64,000 nt of DNA from positions 16,926,001 to 16,990,000 of the forward strand of contig OX597840.1 in the NCBI GenBank assembly GCA_951406725.2. Reading direction: 5' to 3'. Below, piece after piece: positions 7,900-53,837 of the stretch (the stretch's first letter is position 1; each line of letters opens with the position of its first letter). The translations under genes and the position numbers were made by a program. The notes under the pieces were generated by a model that was not told where the DNA came from, ran no database searches, and was given only the letters and a program-made list of their open reading frames with translations. The DNA comes from Octopus vulgaris. Lineage: Eukaryota.

Positions 7900-8526
7900 T
7901 TCCTGCTATAGGCACAAGGCCTGAACTTTTGGGTGAGGGATAGTCGATTAGATCGACCCCCCAGTACTCAACTGGTACTTAATTTATCGACCCCGAAAGG
8001 ATGAAAGGCAAAGTCGACCTTGGCGGAATTTGAACTCAGAACGTAGCGGCAGACGAAATACCTATTTCTACTTCTTTATTACCCACAAAGGGCTAAACAC
8101 AGAGAGGACAAACAAGGACAGACAAACAGATTAAGTCGATTACATCGACCTCAGTGCGTAACTGGTGCTTGTTTAATCGACCCCGAAAGAACGAAAGGCA
8201 AAGTCGACCTCGGCGGAATTTGAACTCAGAACGTAACAGCAGACGAAATGCCGCTAAGCATTTCGCCCGGCATGCTAACGGTTCTGCCAGCTCGCCACTT
8301 TATAAATAATAATTCTTTTCTACTTTAGGCACAAGGCCCGAAATTTTGGGGGATAGGGCTAGTCGATTAGGTCGACCTCAGTACGCAACTGGTACTTAAT
8401 TTATCGATCCTGAAAGGATGAAAGGCAAAGTCGACCTCGGCAGAATTTGAACTCAGAACTTAAAGACAGACGAAATATCACTAAGCATTTCGCCCGGCGT
8501 GCTAACGCTTCTGCCAGCTCGCCGCC
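7900..8526 (-). mobile_element. Tandem SINE family A copies facing the previous cluster
   Basis: Three cores ending in ..ctgccagctcgcc. Confidence 0.85.
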
Positions 8527-25829: not shown

Positions 25830-26106
25830 AAATTAGCGAATGTTAACATAAAGCTGAAGATCAGTGAAAAAGAGAACACCTATGCTGAACTATTGAGAAA
25901 TCTGCAGTTACTCTATCCAGATTACAAGTTCGGATTTATACCTGTAATTATTGGGGCCCTGGGATATGTAACACACTGTCTAAATACCAATTTGAGAAAT
26001 TAGGCTTCTCAAAACCAGAAAGGAGGAAGGTAATTCGAAGACTACAGATCCAATCCATCACTGGAACTGTAAAAATCTGTAAAACTTTCCAGAAGTTTAT
26101 CATTTA
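25830..26106 (+). mobile_element. 3' fragment of a non-LTR retrotransposon with restriction-like endonuclease
   Basis: EKENTYAELLRNLQLLYP..FIPVIIGALGYVT..LQIQSITGTVKICKTF; frameshifted. Confidence 0.7.
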
Positions 26107-26749
26107 AATATATATGAGCCTGTCTTGATATGTAACTATATGCATGGGAATACACACATAAAACATATAAATCTGCACATACATACATACATAATTTTAA
26201 CTTTTCGAAAAATATTTTACTGTTTTTAATTCCTAACTGGATATACGTATATATAAAATTAATATAAACAGTAATATTTCACCGAAAAAGACAATTATAA
26301 TTGTCACTAAATGTGACTCGGTGCAAAGAAACACCTCCATTGTATAACAGTGGGATTAGTATAACGGCTGATTGGGTACCACGTTTATAATGTGGTGTAT
26401 TATCTTATATGGTTTCTACTGGCATAGATAAACGCCGTAGTGATATATATTATATATATATATATATTATATATAATTAATTAATAAGGGTGAGAGAATT
26501 AGATACTAATTTAATAGTATATTTATTCCACACCAAGTGGCCTAGTGCTACGAGAAACCTGGATTATTATAATATTTTATAACATATTATAATATTTTTA
26601 CAAAATAAATATAAGAGAGTGGTCACTATATTGCTCACTCTAGCACCAGTTAATCCAAAAGGTTTCAACCACGAAAATACATGTTTCCCATGAAAGCCAG
26701 TACGACTGTTAGCTCACACGGACAGGGCAAATAAAAAATAACAAAAATA

Positions 26750-26843
26750 CAGATTATTTTGGGACAATTGTTTCGCTATTAATGAATTAAATGTAATATT
26801 ACTTACAAAAATCCATTTGTAGCTCGTCAGCCAAGACTATCTG
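26750..26843 (-). ncRNA. Type I hammerhead ribozyme, array copy 1
   Basis: Reverse complement of 28238-28331. Confidence 0.85.
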
Positions 26844-27282
26844 GATGAAATCCACTCAATCACACGCCAGATTTTACCATAACGATAAATACGCGTGTGG
26901 TTCAATTGATTACATCCGACGTTATAATTCAAATGCCCCAACCAACAGCGCGCCAAACTCTCACGGAAAACAAATACAGCATTTAGAAATAAATGCAGCA
27001 TAATTATAATTAATTAATAAGGGTGAGAGAATTAGATACTAATTTAATAGTATATTTATTCCACACCAAGTGGCCTAGTGCTACGAGAAACCTGGATTAT
27101 TATAATATTTTATAACATATTATAATATTTTTACAAAATAAATATAAGAGAGTGGTCACTATATTGCTCACTCTAGCACCAGTTAATCCAAAAGGTTTCA
27201 ACCACGAAAATACATGTTTCCCATGAAAGCCAGTACGACTGTTAGCTCACACGGACAGGGCAAATAAAAAATAACAAAAATA

Positions 27283-27376
27283 CAGATTATTTTGGGACAA
27301 TTGTTTCGCTATTAATGAATTAAATGTAATATTACTTACAAAAATCCATTTGTAGCTCGTCAGCCAAGACTATCTG
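27283..27376 (-). ncRNA. Type I hammerhead ribozyme, array copy 2
   Basis: Same motif, 533 bp from copy 1. Confidence 0.85.
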
Positions 27377-27815
27377 GATGAAATCCACTCAATCACACGC
27401 CAGATTTTACCATAACGATAAATACGCGTGTGGTTCAATTGATTACATCCGACGTTATAATTCAAATGCCCCAACCAACAGCGCGCCAAACTCTCACGGA
27501 AAACAAATACAGCATTTAGAAATAAATGCAGCATAATTATAATTAATTAATAAGGGTGAGAGAATTAGATACTAATTTAATAGTATATTTATTCCACACC
27601 AAGTGGCCTAGTGCTACGAGAAACCTGGATTATTATAATATTTTATAACATATTATAATATTTTTACAAAATAAATATAAGAGAGTGGTCACTATATTGC
27701 TCACTCTAGCACCAGTTAATCCAAAAGGTTTCAACCACGAAAATACATGTTTCCCATGAAAGCCAGTACGACTGTTAGCTCACACGGACAGGGCAAATAA
27801 AAAATAACAAAAATA

Positions 27816-27909
27816 CAGATTATTTTGGGACAATTGTTTCGCTATTAATGAATTAAATGTAATATTACTTACAAAAATCCATTTGTAGCTCGTCAGCCAA
27901 GACTATCTG
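27816..27909 (-). ncRNA. Type I hammerhead ribozyme, array copy 3
   Basis: Same motif, 1066 bp from copy 1. Confidence 0.85.
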
Positions 27910-28237
27910 GATGAAATCCACTCAATCACACGCCAGATTTTACCATAACGATAAATACGCGTGTGGTTCAATTGATTACATCCGACGTTATAATTCAAAT
28001 GCCCCAACCAACAGCGCGCCAAACTCTCACGGAAAACAAATACAGCATTTAGAAATAAATGCAGCATAATTATAATTAATTAATAAGGGTGAGAGAATTA
28101 GATACTAATTTAATAGTATATTTATTCCACACCAAGTGGCCTAGTGCTACGAGAAACCTGGATTATTATAATCAATTGAACCACACGCGTATTTATCGTT
28201 ATGGTAAAATCTGGCGTGTGATTGAGTGGATTTCATC

Positions 28238-28331
28238 CAGATAGTCTTGGCTGACGAGCTACAAATGGATTTTTGTAAGTAATATTACATTTAATTCATT
28301 AATAGCGAAACAATTGTCCCAAAATAATCTG
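28238..28331 (+). ncRNA. Type I hammerhead ribozyme, array copy 4
   Basis: cagatagtcttgg-CTGACGA-GCTA[..aatggat..attcatt..]TAGC-GAAA-CAATT-GTC^ccaaaataatctg: intact core, stems I and II pair, palindromic stem III ACAATTGT, GUC site (cut after 28318). Confidence 0.88.
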
Positions 28332-28770
28332 TATTTTTGTTATTTTTTATTTGCCCTGTCCGTGTGAGCTAACAGTCGTACTGGCTTTCATGGGAAACAT
28401 GTATTTTCGTGGTTGAAACCTTTTGGATTAACTGGTGCTAGAGTGAGCAATATAGTGACCACTCTCTTATATTTATTTTGTAAAAATATTATAATATGTT
28501 ATAAAATATTATAATAATCCAGGTTTCTCGTAGCACTAGGCCACTTGGTGTGGAATAAATATACTATTAAATTAGTATCTAATTCTCTCACCCTTATTAA
28601 TTAATTATAATTATGCTGCATTTATTTCTAAATGCTGTATTTGTTTTCCGTGAGAGTTTGGCGCGCTGTTGGTTGGGGCATTTGAATTATAACGTCGGAT
28701 GTAATCAATTGAACCACACGCGTATTTATCGTTATGGTAAAATCTGGCGTGTGATTGAGTGGATTTCATC

Positions 28771-28864
28771 CAGATAGTCTTGGCTGACGAGCTACAAATG
28801 GATTTTTGTAAGTAATATTACATTTAATTCATTAATAGCGAAACAATTGTCCCAAAATAATCTG
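28771..28864 (+). ncRNA. Type I hammerhead ribozyme, array copy 5
   Basis: Same motif as copy 4, 533 bp further on. Confidence 0.85.
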
Positions 28865-29006
28865 TATTTTTGTTATTTTTTATTTGCCCTGTCCGTGTGA
28901 GCTAACAGTCGTACTGGCTTTCATGGGAAACATGTATTTTCGTGGTTGAAACCTTTTGGATTAACTGGTGCTAGAGTGAGCAATATAGTGACCACTCTCT
29001 TATATT

Positions 29007-29080
<74 letters not shown>

Positions 29081-29688: not shown

Positions 29689-29919
29689 TACAGTTGCTAG
29701 AAATAAGAGCTAAAATACTCTAATGCTGTAATTAGTGCACATGAATGAAAACATATACAATAACAGGAACCTGAATCGTCCGAAAAATTTCTCGGTCGGC
29801 ATTTTTCGGACGTTTATGGTCCCAATTAGTGTATATGTTTGCATTCATGTGCATTAAGAGTTAAAATGCCCTGATGCTACAGTATTAGGGCATTTTAACT
29901 CTTATTTCTAGCAATGTAG
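29689..29919. mobile_element. Small imperfect fold-back MITE
   Basis: taca.ttgctagaaataagagctaaaat / attttaactcttatttctagcaatgta, with inner cgtccgaaaaat / atttttcggacg. Confidence 0.65.
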
Positions 29920-30195: not shown

Positions 30196-30880
30196 TTAGG
30201 GTGGAGCGTTTTTCACTGCTTTCGATTTCGCGTGGCGGGGGTGTGAATGGACATCAAAATAGCGAGTGTAGAATCTTTGAACTCTGCAACAATATCTTCT
30301 GTCTCCACAAATGCATCGAAAAATGGAAGAAAAGTGATAAAAAAAACGCCTCTACTTATTTATTGGATATAAAATACAGTTTTCATTGCATCTTCTTCAA
30401 GTAGCTTATAAATAAATGTGATGCAATTACTCTGAAATAAATCGTGAAAAAAACATATTTTTTTCTGTCACTTCATCTTCTGCCTCCAGAAGGAGGGGCG
30501 GGGGTGTACCGTAATTTACATTTACATGAAAAATTTTCTGAATCCGATAAATTACAATATTTTTGCATATTTTAAGGCGTTTGTAGCGGCAGAAGATGAA
30601 GTCACAGAAAAAAAAAACTGTTCAAGTAGTATTTTAGAGTAATTTCATCATATTCATTTCAAAACTACCCGAAGAAGATGCACTGGAAACTGTATTTTAT
30701 AGCTAATAAATAAGCAGAGGCGTATTTTTTTCTCCACTTTTTTTCGATGCATTTGTGGAGACAGAAGATGTTGTCGCAGAATTCTATGATTCTACACCAG
30801 TTATTTTGATGTCCATTCACAACTTTACCGCACAACCGCCATCACGAAATCGAAAATCGTGAAAAAGCGCTCCGTCCTAA
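30196..30880. mobile_element. Long-TIR MITE with TA target site duplication
   Basis: TA|TTAGGGTGGAGCG..CGCTCCGTCCTAA|TA; imperfect arms of about 290 bp (e.g. tcttctgtctccacaaatgcatcgaaaaa and its reverse complement). Confidence 0.85.
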
Positions 30881-49817: not shown

Positions 49818-52135
49818 TCAACGAGGAGTTTGCATATTAAGTTGTGTTTGGAATTTTTCAATAAAGAGATTCTCCTTGTTAATTCTCTCCTGTGTGGTGA
49901 TCCCGTCTTTACATTGGTAGAAGGGGAATATATAGAATTTGGGGTTTAAGTCTTTGGCACATGAGTCTAAGTGGTCACTCAGTGGAATTTGTCGGTATTC
50001 CGGGAGATTTATTTGTTCTTTATGCACCGTTACTCGTTTACGTAACGGGAGACTCGTTTGTCCCACATAATTATGTTGGCAACCAGCGCATGTGAGAACG
50101 TAGATAAGGTTCTCGGAGGAACAGGAGAAGTTAGTCTTGATTTTAAACTTCGTACCTTGTTTGAAGGTAAATTCAGAGCCTTCAAGTAGAAAGGGGCAGG
50201 TACCACAGTTTGAGCGTGCACATTTTTTTACTGTTGGGGGTGGATGTGGTGTGTGAAGTTTGGCATTTGTCAAGAGTTTTTTTAAAGATTTGTGTTGCCT
50301 TTTGCATTTGAGGATTTTGTGTGTATTTATAATGTTTTTCATTTTTGGGTCTGTTGACAGTAGACTGAGGTTTTGTATGATTGTGGTGTATGCTTCGATA
50401 TTTTTGGGGTTGTGGGTGGAAATGTATGGAAGTATTTTGAGGTTGTGTGTGGTGTTAGGTTGGGTGGTTTTCAGTGTAGTGTTGTCTAGTTCTTTGGCGC
50501 GTTTTATTCCATACTCTATAAGGGTGGAGGGATATTGACGTTGTAATAGTGTTTTTTTGAGGTCTTGAAGGCGTATTTCTCGTGTTTTTGGATCCGAGAC
50601 AATGGTGCATACCCTTTTAGCTAAATTGAAAGGGATATTTGTCTTGGTGTGTTTTGGGTGGCATGAACTAAAGAGGAGGTATTGTTGTGAGTCTGTAGGT
50701 TTGTGGTAGATGTCTGTTATGATTTGGTTTTTAGGTGTTTTTATAATTAGGAGATCAAGGAATGGGAGATGATGTTTGCTAAATTCCATAGTGAATTGGA
50801 TGTTGGGATGTATGTTGTTTAGTATGGTTTTGAATTCCAGGAGTTTATCATAAGGTTCTTTCCATATGATGAAACAATCATCTAAATACCTTTTCCAGTT
50901 TTCCATTAGGTAGGTGTGGAAAACATGTCCAAATTTCTGGCTTGATATTTCATAGAGTGACAGTTCGAAGTAACCCATTATGAGGTTCGCAAGGACTGGT
51001 GCAGCCTTGGTACCCATCGCAATGCCACATTTTTGACGGTAGTGTGTGTCGTCGAAGAGAAAAAAATTGTTTGTCAGAATGAACTTAAGAGATTCTGTAA
51101 TAAAAGACTTGTTAATGCGGTCAGGGAATGTCTCTGGGTGTTTTTCTAGCCAGAAGTCAATTGCCTCTATACCATACTCATGTGGAATGTTGGTGTAGAG
51201 GTTGATGACATCAAAGGATACCAGGAGTGCCCCCTCGTTAACTGTTTTCGGGAGGTGTTTGAGCATGTCCAGATCATCCCTAATGAAACTTTTGATGTGG
51301 GTAAGGAAAGGTTTCAAAAGGATGTCTAGGAAGTTACTCAGGCGGTGTGTTTCACAGGAGGTACCCGCCACGATGGGCCTTAGTTTTAGGTCCTCCGGTG
51401 CTTTGATGTTGATGTGGATGTCAGTGGAGAGTTTGCAGGCTTCGGTGATGTATTTGTTTTTATGGATTTTAGGAAGGCCATAAAAAAGGCTGGGCTTGCA
51501 TTTGAAAATGGTGATATAATCCCTTTCTTTTTCTGTGAGTCCCTGGCCGTGTTGGCGTATGAGTGTGGTGAGGTTTCTGATTGTTTTTTGCTGTTTGTAG
51601 TTGTTAATAACCTCATAGAAAATGTTATTGTTAAGCATGGAGAACACTAGGTGTTTATAAAATTCCGTGTCCATAAGGACCACAGCACTCCCTTTGTCCG
51701 CTTCTTTGATGGTGAGGTTTTTATCCAGTTGTATGTCACGTAGGTTTTCCCATTCTTCCTTACTGAAATTGGATTTTACCTTGGTTTTGCTTGGGGTAAA
51801 GGGGAGACTCTGGATGTGTTTACAGAAATCGTCCAGTGTTTTATTTCTCCTTTTGGTGGTAGGAAGTTGCTTTTATTTCTGATCAATGAATCGTCCCCAT
51901 TGTTGATATCTGTCAAAGCTTCTGTTAGGCGAAGTTTTCTGCAGAATTCAGAAACGTCATCCTTGACCTCCGGGGGGTTGGGTGTTCTTGGGGTGGGTGT
52001 GAATTTCAAACCTCTTGCTAGGATGTTGATTTGGGTTGGTGTCAGTGTTTTGCTGGAGAGGTTTATAATTTTTGTTTTCTTATTTTGGGTCTGTGTTAGC
52101 GGTGGTGTTTGTATTTTTCCCCCCTGTCTAAAAAA
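49818..52135 (-). CDS. PLE reverse transcriptase + GIY-YIG endonuclease (one 1-nt frameshift near 51850)
   Basis: IINLSSKTLT..GLKFTPTP, ADKGSAVV, FDVINLYTNIP, GIAMGTKAAP, RYLDD, LPFLD, CARSNCGTC Zn-finger-like linker, NLIYVLTCAGCQHNYVGQT. Confidence 0.93.
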
Positions 52136-53588
52136 TGGTTGTTGAGGTAAGGGGTGTATTCTTTGTTAAAGTTCTGGTTGTATGTGTAGGAGTGTTTTTG
52201 GGTGGGGAGGTTGGAGGGGGGTAGGTAGTTGTCGTATTTGTGTTGGTATGGGATGCGATGGTGTAAGGTTTTGTGAGAAATGCGATGGGTTTGTGGGTGT
52301 GTGTCTGGTAGATTGTATGGGGGGATGTAGGAGGGTATGTAGTTGTGGTGATTGGGTTCGTGTGGGATGTGAGGGTTTGGAGATCTGTAGGAGATGTGGT
52401 AGGAATGTGGTTGTTGGATGGGTGGACTATAGGGGGTTCGTTGGGTGGGTCTTATATGTATCGGTGTGGGTAGGATGCCTTGTTTGTTATTAGTGTGAGG
52501 GAGGGGAGCCTTGAGGGGGGGATAATTTCTAGTGTATGGGAGGTTCTTGAAGGTTCTAATCGGTGGGGGAGGGGTGTTAGAGTGATTGGAAAACCAGGTT
52601 TTGTGGTGGGTCTTGTTTGAGATGTTTCGGGGGGAAAGGGTTTTTTATATGGTTAGGGGAGGTTGTGTCCTGTTAGGAGGGGGTTTGGAGAGTATGTGTA
52701 TTTGAGGTGCGGTTTGGAATGGTGTTTATGGGGTACAGTGGAAGTCTGTGTTGTGGGTACTTTTATGAATGGGTTTTTGGATTTATGGTTTAATATGAAT
52801 TGTGTTTCATAGTTGAGGAAGAAATCTTTGTTGTTTTCCCAGCGTTTGAGGGAGGTTCGTTCTTCCTTTTCACATTCATCTTTCCATAGTTTAATAACAA
52901 GTTCGAGGGGCTGTTCGTTGGTGTGTGAGGTTAGTTCTAGAAGTATCTCATCGTCTATTTTTGTGTATTTTTGTTCGTGGTTTTGTGCTCTGAGTTTTAG
53001 AAGTTCTACTTCGGTTTTCATTTTTTCCAATGTTAGTTTTTCTCTTAGGAAGCGTTGTTTTTCAGGTTCGTCTGGGATGTGTTTGATTTGGAATTTTCGG
53101 GGTAGTATGATAGGGGAGGAGTTTAACCATTTGTCGTAAATATCAGCTTTGTTTTGGTTTTTGAGCATGTTCCAGAAGAGAAGTTTTCTGTTGTGTAGTT
53201 TCTTAGTCCAAGTAGTGATGATCTGGTTTTTAATGCGTTGTGCTGGGGTTGAAATGTGTTCCTTCTGTGTGTTGAGTGGTGTCTGAGGTCTCTTTGGCGT
53301 TGAATTGGTAAGTAGAGTTTTCAGTGTAGTGTTGATTTCATTTAGGTTTACATCTATCTTATCCGAAAGTAGAGTTTTCAGTGTAGTGTTGATTTCGTTT
53401 AGGTTTACATCAAATTTATCCGAAAGTTGTTGATGATGGTTGTTTTCTGAATTGTCCCGGGATTGAAGGAGAAGTTCGTCAATTTTTTTGGAGAATGTAA
53501 GTAGATGTGTATTGAGTACTTTGAGTTCTTTTAGAATGGTCTTATTGGTGACTGTCTCTGTAAGAGTGCTCTTGTTTTTCGGAGGCAT
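52096..53588 (-). CDS. PLE ORF1 / N-terminal region: helical part (53588-52653) plus Pro/His/Asn/Tyr-rich part (52644-52096); disrupted near 52650
   Basis: 311-aa ATG ORF starting about 30 nt after the direct repeat; I translated a second 182-codon frame with no stop, ending ..YLNNHFLDRGEKYKHHR*. Confidence 0.7.
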
Positions 53589-53837
53589 TCTGAATCACAC
53601 GTGTGGTAGAGGGTACAGATCAATAAATGGTGGGGTTGTGTTGACCGCACGTGGAGAAATGATAAGTAAGGAAAAATTTTTTTAAAAATGCAGAATGAAA
53701 CATAAATATTCTTGACAAGTCATACATTGACGAAAACCGGTTGAATAAATATATATATTTATATATTTTATCATTTTCTCATTTTATTAAAATTTTATTT
53801 CATTTGAGCATTCTGCATTTTTAAAAAAATTTTTCCT

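Follow-up and report, generated by a model that had tools for sequence, protein, structure and literature searches.

Back-to-back retrozyme arrays in Octopus vulgaris suggest insertion by twin priming of Penelope-like elements

How do small non-coding ribozyme units come to stand in a genome as identical head-to-tail copies that turn about and continue on the opposite strand? The window analysed here (the whole stretch of 64,000 nt from Octopus vulgaris contig OX597840.1) contains such an array. For animal retrozymes, it is described as open which element moves them and whether or not their arrays are formed at insertion (bioRxiv 10.64898/2026.07.22.740005, PMC7229834; published work is cited here and below from the parts of each source available to us), and the origin of the tandem, inverted and tailed insertions of Penelope-like elements (PLEs) is likewise stated as open (PMC8557442). 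With a 533-nt unit, hundreds of young insertions, two mapped ends and candidate enzymes with long open frames in one genome, the retrozyme and the PLE question both become directly testable. The class of element is already known; new is the evidence that its insertion anatomy provides on the origin of retrozymes and of PLE inversions. Our main reading, to which we assign a probability of roughly 0.65, is a non-LTR retrozyme inserted by PLE twin priming, probably from a circular RNA template, at a (TA)n target nicked on both strands.

Architecture of the array and its ribozymes

The initial annotation had described about 3.2 apparently identical 533-bp units, an inversion and about 1.6 further units, spanning 26472..29009 between (TA)n tracts and devoid of ORFs. 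This picture was borne out: the 533-bp periodicity is perfect (0 mismatches), TA tracts lie beside both ends and the longest stop-free frame of the circularised unit comprises 68 codons (Table 1). The inversion, seen at that stage but left unexplained, is the most informative feature of the locus (L070 in our locus set). No LTR-like flank was seen at the array. Between the two fixed end sites lies a 130-nt segment, the 'tail', which we infer to be flanked by two reverse-transcription start sites.

Table 1. Features of the array in window coordinates; unit position 1 is the base right after the ribozyme cut.
Feature	Position	Strand	Remarks
13-bp target-site duplication TATATTATATATA, left copy	26463..26475		within TA tract; 4-nt overlap with arm end
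Left arm, 3.19 identical 533-bp units	26472..28172	− (ribozyme)	from periodicity; outer (RNA 3′) end at unit position 291, inner end at unit position 190
Hammerhead 1 with stem I, type I	26750..26843 (core 26830-26763)	−	predicted cut 26763/26762
Hammerhead 2, type I	27283..27376 (core 27363-27296)	−	predicted cut 27296/27295
Hammerhead 3, type I	27816..27909 (core 27896-27829)	−	predicted cut 27829/27828
Microhomology TAAT, 4 nt	28169..28172		shared by both arms at centre joint
Right arm, 1.58 units	28169..29009	+ (ribozyme)	from periodicity; inner end at unit position 384, outer (RNA 3′) end at about 158-161
Hammerhead 4, type I	28238..28331 (core 28251-28318)	+	predicted cut after 28318
Palindromic helix III of hammerhead 4	28310-28317	+	
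Cut-to-cut monomer, 533 nt, 33% GC	28319..28851	+	predicted self-cleavage product
Predicted hairpin	28440..28465	+	close upstream of the position-160 end
'Tail', 130 nt	28480..28609	+	between two fixed end sites (unit positions 162-291)
TTTGGCGC and GGCATTTGAA motifs	28657..28686	+	candidate internal promoter; ~170-195 nt upstream of cut
Hammerhead 5, type I	28771..28864 (core 28784-28851)	+	predicted cut after 28851
13-bp target-site duplication TATATTATATATA, right copy	29007..29019		followed by (TA)n up to 29078

An intact type I hammerhead had been proposed for each full unit, with an extended stem I, a long stem II and a palindromic stem III. Five cores were found (three on the − strand, two on the +), at positions matching all five predicted cut sites, and each of the stem features is present, the palindrome being ACAATTGT. 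The suggested scan with the Hammerhead_1 model failed to recover them: an Rfam search of the window gave 0 matches at the gathering threshold and one of 28100-29050 no hammerhead match at E ≤ 10, likely because of the long stem II. Identification as a ribozyme therefore draws on the core motif together with covariation in stem I, whose pairing is preserved via compensatory changes across related families at 94%, 74% and about 50% identity, all collinear with the 533-bp unit. Folding of the linear monomer beat all 100 shuffles (z −6.9). Among the first 71 loci of the family, only two core changes were common to at least two loci (positions 467 and 471, two loci each), and the free core position 7 was variable in nine.

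Helix III consists of 2 bp closed by the palindrome. Hammerheads with a short palindromic helix III have been described as active as dimers (PMC4209133), and the notion that this helix is suited to dimeric cleavage between neighbouring units is supported by the predicted energies of the palindrome, −6.4 kcal/mol for the intermolecular duplex versus +2.4 kcal/mol for the 2-bp hairpin.

Other elements of the unit are shared with its relatives. In the 74%-identical sister family, a hairpin of other sequence is predicted at the place equivalent to 28440..28465. The GGCAYTTGAA sequence and the neighbouring GC-rich motif of the candidate promoter are kept in all three related families, and neither was found upstream of the PLE ribozymes checked. 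These motifs may resemble the E2F and CHR sites of cell-cycle promoters.

The surroundings of the array hold further repeats. At about 25850-26100 (+ strand) lies a short stretch, FGFIPVIIGALG, perhaps the end of a restriction-enzyme-like LINE, and inverted repeats of 57-110 nt at 29732-29857 and 30242-30821 are possibly small DNA transposons. A Hydra-type PLE 3′-end hammerhead (of the family of L143-L167) runs from 33655 downward on the − strand, about 4.6 kb from the array, and a broken two-ORF PLE occupies 51776-53594 (− strand), with an N-terminal motif like that of a Neptune-like family.

A dispersed family with two fixed ends

The locus belongs to a young family that is dispersed through the genome. 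Across the 2.8-Gb assembly, an internal 22-mer of the unit had 2,021 exact matches and the intact ribozyme pattern 1,772 (reversed controls, 0 in both cases); the first 100 matches of the 22-mer correspond to 34 loci, so that a total of about 700-1,050 is expected by extrapolation. Searching with the monomer yielded 266 matches at the 40 places scored, out of 750 candidates. In total, 91 loci were analysed: 40 top-scoring ones (including that of the window), 31 consecutive ones from the contig-1 list, which form the least biased subset, and 20 picked for length. With 60 of the 91 selected by score or length, the sample is skewed to long, young copies. Sequencing runs labelled as five organisms contain 56-91% of the sampled words, none of the runs with these words being recorded as RNA.

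The unit combines tandem type I hammerheads, lack of coding capacity, a GC content below 45% and occurrence at multiple loci, and thus belongs to the non-LTR retrozymes by the sequence definition of that class. A plant LTR retrozyme was ruled out by the type I topology, the tandem units and duplications of 13-16 bp (rather than type III ribozymes within LTRs and 4-bp duplications), and an autonomous PLE by the lack of an RT plus GIY-YIG ORF in the unit; in the flanks of 31 loci, no frame of at least 200 codons was attached to an arm or PLE-like by eye. Sister retrozyme families with units of about 506-507 bp (74% and 50% identity; L230-L260 and L262 6372-7012) possess equivalent end sites. The 533-bp unit contains a 20-nt duplication that has no counterpart in the sister family, without which its end-site spacing of 130 nt would be about 110. 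At L260 1175 (+ strand), another long-stem-II hammerhead element faces a sister-family arm across a TA tract. In the main texts of the openly searchable literature, no account of the 533-bp family was found.

The initial annotation had anticipated dispersed arrays with permuted ends. Dispersal was confirmed; the ends are not permuted, as the RNA-3′ ends occupy two fixed sites and randomness is confined to the inner ends. Two arms were present at 61 of the 91 loci, without exception back-to-back (−/+) and with the RNA-3′ ends outward, and every one of these loci paired one end near 160 with one near 291 (44/44 among 71 loci and 17/17 among 20 more). RNA-3′ ends of all arms fell within about 157-165 or 285-294 of the unit, seven arm ends having been taken by eye from the flank where a variant or noise halted exact extension. 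The 30 one-armed loci ended at 291 in 18 cases and at 160 in 12, and a few matching bases, such as a vestigial second arm might leave, were seen in 5 of 27 such loci versus 2 control flanks. Inner ends of the 152 arms, by contrast with this fixity, were uniform round the unit (KS p=0.69).

Arms ranged from 0.03 to 13 units, and the arrays were flanked by (TA)n in nearly all cases. Target duplications, where readable, measured mostly 13-16 bp and overlapped the arm ends by a few bases, the cleanest being one of 15 bp at L068. Of 44 centre joints, 28 were direct and 16 carried 1-44 nt of filler letters; the 28 filler-free joints showed a mean microhomology of 1.7 nt versus 0.77 nt by chance (p=2e-4). 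A one-ended tail, an inverted truncated copy and a microsatellite target are considered hallmarks of PLEs (PMC8557442; PMC8969392), and all three, the inverted copy being 5′-truncated, were found at 61/61 two-armed loci.

Could the inversion instead be a fold-back, in which one cDNA snaps back and is copied, leaving a single RNA-primed end? Two symmetric joints (L069 at 79/79 and L127 at 67/67, with hairpin filler) and the locally templated nature of some centre fillers are in keeping with this. The second end would then be expected to be random, yet in 61/61 cases it lay at the complementary fixed site, and mirrored unit variants were absent at L031, L069 and L130. Because second ends are fixed and unit variants unmirrored, we consider a fold-back very improbable. 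An assembly artefact, either tandem or fold-back chimera, had been named as what would undo the initial interpretation. Recurrence of the same anatomy with different joints at 91 loci, locus-specific haplotypes, target duplications and the reappearance of inversion joints in contigs of an independent run leave it a practically negligible chance, even if identical units between simple repeats are what such an artefact would produce and no record among the independent-run contigs examined spans the whole locus.

Nature of the RNA template

Twin priming leaves the form of the template to be deduced from junctions and haplotypes. Inner ends within 5 nt of the ribozyme cut numbered 0 of 152, versus 2.9 expected, and 378 cut junctions contained one indel and two substitutions (variants of one noisy arm left out). 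As inner ends avoid the cut and cut junctions are near-seamless, the template had no free end at the ribozyme site. Arms of the same locus differed at 13 of 16,100 shared sites, and different loci at 8,187 of 615,169. Nine substitutions were private to one sampled locus and fixed in all its 3-7 covering units, and 46 well-covered loci fell into 20 haplotypes. This pattern implies that the family went repeatedly through a bottleneck of one unit, which was then multiplied; a circle is a simple way to achieve this. Arms L061 and L140 were excluded from the variant counts as noisy, as were L033 and L116 in the first strand-bias count.

Other observations count against a pure monomer circle. Of the 22 loci with at least four units (first 71 loci), 8 have variants that recur in part of their units; in four arms, the recurrence has a spacing of three units, and L276, L277 and L278 are haplotype mosaics with periods of 2-5, L277 being near a four-unit period. 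A pure monomer circle does not give such patterns; multimeric circles, linear multimers or DNA exchange at a later time would account for them. In units 3-9 of the long arm of L276, intact and G8A cores alternate, which fits the expectation for a dimer template, and in L031 a complete unit stems from a different lineage, the cut site lying within the intervals at its two borders. A U4C core change has spread in one lineage (L122, L139 and most units of L278), which counts against our main reading. The identity of the copies favours the earlier proposal of rolling-circle copying and stops short of proving it, since 8/22 long loci carry recurring variants.

Marks of the copying process itself were sought as well. 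An excess of RNA-strand G>A changes, considered as a mark of RT errors (24 vs 6 in 71 loci; p=0.009, one of six tests), was dropped after 17 vs 11 such changes in 20 further loci (p=0.7), and an A>G excess suggestive of RNA editing was absent in both sets of 71 and 20 loci. One sequencing run, guessed to be RNA, contained a single 563-letter contig (533+30) over the unit, of one common haplotype, as expected from either a circle or a tandem.

Seamless cut junctions fit equally well if PLE twin priming acted on an uncleaved linear multimer from an existing array, with ribozyme and circle being incidental. Unit variants do recur within arrays, and the arms of L281, and partly those of L278, show the same variant order when counted from their outer ends. 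Uncleaved RNA was also the main PLE substrate in vitro (PMC11167929), and most tested retrozyme dimers remained uncleaved (8/9 from Xenopus; bioRxiv 10.64898/2026.07.22.740005). Truncated copies of linear donors, however, can only be shorter than the donor array; arms of 11-13 units nevertheless occur, and none of the 80 candidates scored held a longer master array. The locus-private variants fixed in every unit, together with the haplotype diversity, imply repeated one-unit bottlenecks, and stem I is conserved by covariation. Taken together, we regard a linear template as unlikely, if deserving of serious consideration.

Alternatively, roughly one unit might be inserted by the PLE machinery and tandem growth follow later by unequal exchange, as has been proposed for vertebrate retrozymes (bioRxiv 10.64898/2026.07.22.740005). 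Against such growth speak 7 of the 22 long loci, which lack any internal substitution and include an 11.6-unit arm of the common young haplotype, and the smooth distribution of arm lengths (0.03 to 6.2 units) in the least biased subset, where 22 of 48 arms exceed one unit; any arm longer than one unit already requires a continuous template. Periods of 2-5 units in older arrays do resemble block duplication, and the RT-error strand bias was not replicated, points that speak for later growth. We hold this route to be quite improbable.

Twin priming on a probably circular RNA may be pictured as follows. Arrays would be transcribed, perhaps via the internal promoter, and neighbouring ribozymes would pair through the ACAAUUGU palindrome, releasing monomers. 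The circle might be closed by a host ligase, host ligation having been demonstrated for the circles of other retrozymes (PMC7229834), and the single ribozyme of a closed monomer would lack the strength for recutting. Staggered nicks about 13-16 nt apart would then be made by a PLE protein, most likely one of the Hydra clade and perhaps acting as a dimer, whereupon each 3′ overhang could prime at one of the two sites through a few bases of AT-rich complementarity. Both cDNAs would then copy their way around the template for 0.03 to 13 units before their ends are joined through microhomology or short templated filler. It is likely that not all templates were monomers and that some were dimers to tetramers.

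Candidate enzymes and comparison with known systems

The retrozyme co-occurs with autonomous PLEs, as Neptune-like and Hydra families with long open frames are present in the same genome. A search for GIY-YIG families revealed a Neptune-like two-ORF family with a 40-nt tail, three inverted loci of which also follow the rule of one long and one short end. Its young members (L091-L108, e.g. L096 1191 and 5904) encode an upstream ORF of ~466 aa and a 765-aa RT-GIY-YIG ORF; the protein had no match among solved structures, and in the hammerheads of several subfamilies U3-A8 replaces C3-G8. As a partner of the retrozyme, this family was rejected on account of its tail length and lack of homology to the unit.

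Hydra protein searches uncovered at least five Hydra-related families (L210, L262-L273) with open frames of 778-1,091 codons, which include long Asn-rich stretches; their assignment to the Hydra clade relies on RWK, DKT and CxCX5C motifs, compared with PMC8557442. The elements examined have long-stem-II ribozymes, a palindromic helix III and two ends about 100-130 nt apart. A clear combination of one long with one short end was seen at nine of ten distinct two-armed Hydra loci; the remaining locus has a long end that carries a deletion. In these elements, the first end is found some 35-50 nt past the cut, versus 160 in the retrozyme.

No sequence homology to the unit was detected in the sampled PLE loci by blastn, tblastx or profiles. 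A profile of the tail had no match and one of the unit matched only the third retrozyme family, the best non-family match reaching an E of about 1. The partner may be unsampled, because the PLE candidates scored were the best 150 of 6,136, of 19,344 and of 5,979, respectively. When the cut triplet was exchanged in a pattern search for this ribozyme, two family members were the only matches. The suggestion of the initial annotation that PLE reverse transcriptases copy the retrozyme is supported as likely by the insertion anatomy, while a sequence link to a partner was not found in the PLE loci sampled. Judged by architecture, the Hydra clade is the best candidate enzyme, at about even odds.

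A broader proposal, which we advance tentatively and place a little below an even chance, is that PLEs integrate by obligate asymmetric twin priming on one circular RNA, with a single enzyme complex priming the two nicked strands at different fixed sites and rolling round the circle in both arms. For all PLEs, this would explain the tandem pseudo-LTR (pLTR), the inversion of the 5′ copy and the presence of a tail on one side; retrozyme arrays would be born long, and their Hydra-clade carriers would read RNA shape instead of shared sequence. A reverse transcriptase able to turn a small circle into multi-unit DNA at both nicks would also be of interest for retrotransposon-based genome writing.

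For metazoan retrozymes, rolling-circle copying by PLE enzymes is the proposed model (PMC7229834; bioRxiv 10.64898/2026.07.22.740005). No motif in the repeats indicates a partner, according to Cervera and de la Pena 2020 (PMC7229834). Li et al. 2026 linked retrozymes to PLEs by co-occurrence and pLTR homology, the latter for 24/57 Xenopus families, and favoured local amplification after insertion (bioRxiv 10.64898/2026.07.22.740005). The octopus family resembles these retrozymes in its non-coding, low-GC tandem units, each with a type I hammerhead, and in its dispersal beside PLEs. Its unit, at first thought to be longer than known monomers, exceeds the circles of 170-400 nt tested by Cervera and de la Pena (PMC7229834), yet falls inside the published range of consensus lengths of 51-972 bp (bioRxiv 10.64898/2026.07.22.740005). 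It differs in its long, Rfam-silent stem II and in having no pLTR homologue among the sampled PLEs, and the available text of the published accounts describes no fixed ends, inversions or target duplications (PMC7229834; bioRxiv 10.64898/2026.07.22.740005). The main texts of the openly searchable literature likewise returned no fixed complementary ends in retrozymes and no twin priming in PLEs. A proposal from 2014 did invoke a circular template for the tandems of PLEs (PMC4209133).

Biochemical precedent comes from Poseidon of the green anole, whose purified protein, predicted to be dimeric, cuts and extends both strands (Frangieh et al. 2024, PMC11167929). As proposed for the retrozyme, two internal start sites on the RNA define a tail, and the DNA is AT-rich (PMC11167929). 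In contrast, the available parts of that study report neither a start-site difference between strands nor a rule of one site per arm; its priming is non-homologous, whereas retrozyme ends overlap the target by a few bases, and its ribozyme is dispensable in vitro, where uncleaved RNA was used and ribozyme mutants inserted equally well (PMC11167929). The non-autonomous elements of the Chlamys group, e.g. MRC1, are similar in being PLE parasites with multicopy head-to-tail insertions, yet their 3′ ends resemble those of their partners and most are without canonical hammerheads (PMC8557442).

Hydra-clade PLEs share with the retrozyme (TA)n targets, an inverted 5′-truncated copy, a one-ended tail and a canonical hammerhead (Craig et al. 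2021, PMC8557442). Published Hydra tails are 30-40 bp long and ascribed to endonuclease resolution (PMC8557442); where measured in this genome, they reach 100-130 nt. The Hydra PLEs of the same genome are alike in stem II, helix III and end spacing; unlike them, the retrozyme has no ORF, no detected homology and a more distant first end, and its arms reach up to 13 units. Twin priming of LINE-1 offers the closing parallel, with back-to-back arms made from two primed cDNAs and a microhomology joint inside a target duplication. There, one primer uses the poly(A) tail and the other anneals to an internal site that varies, whereas in the retrozyme both sites are internal and fixed and the arms are multimeric.
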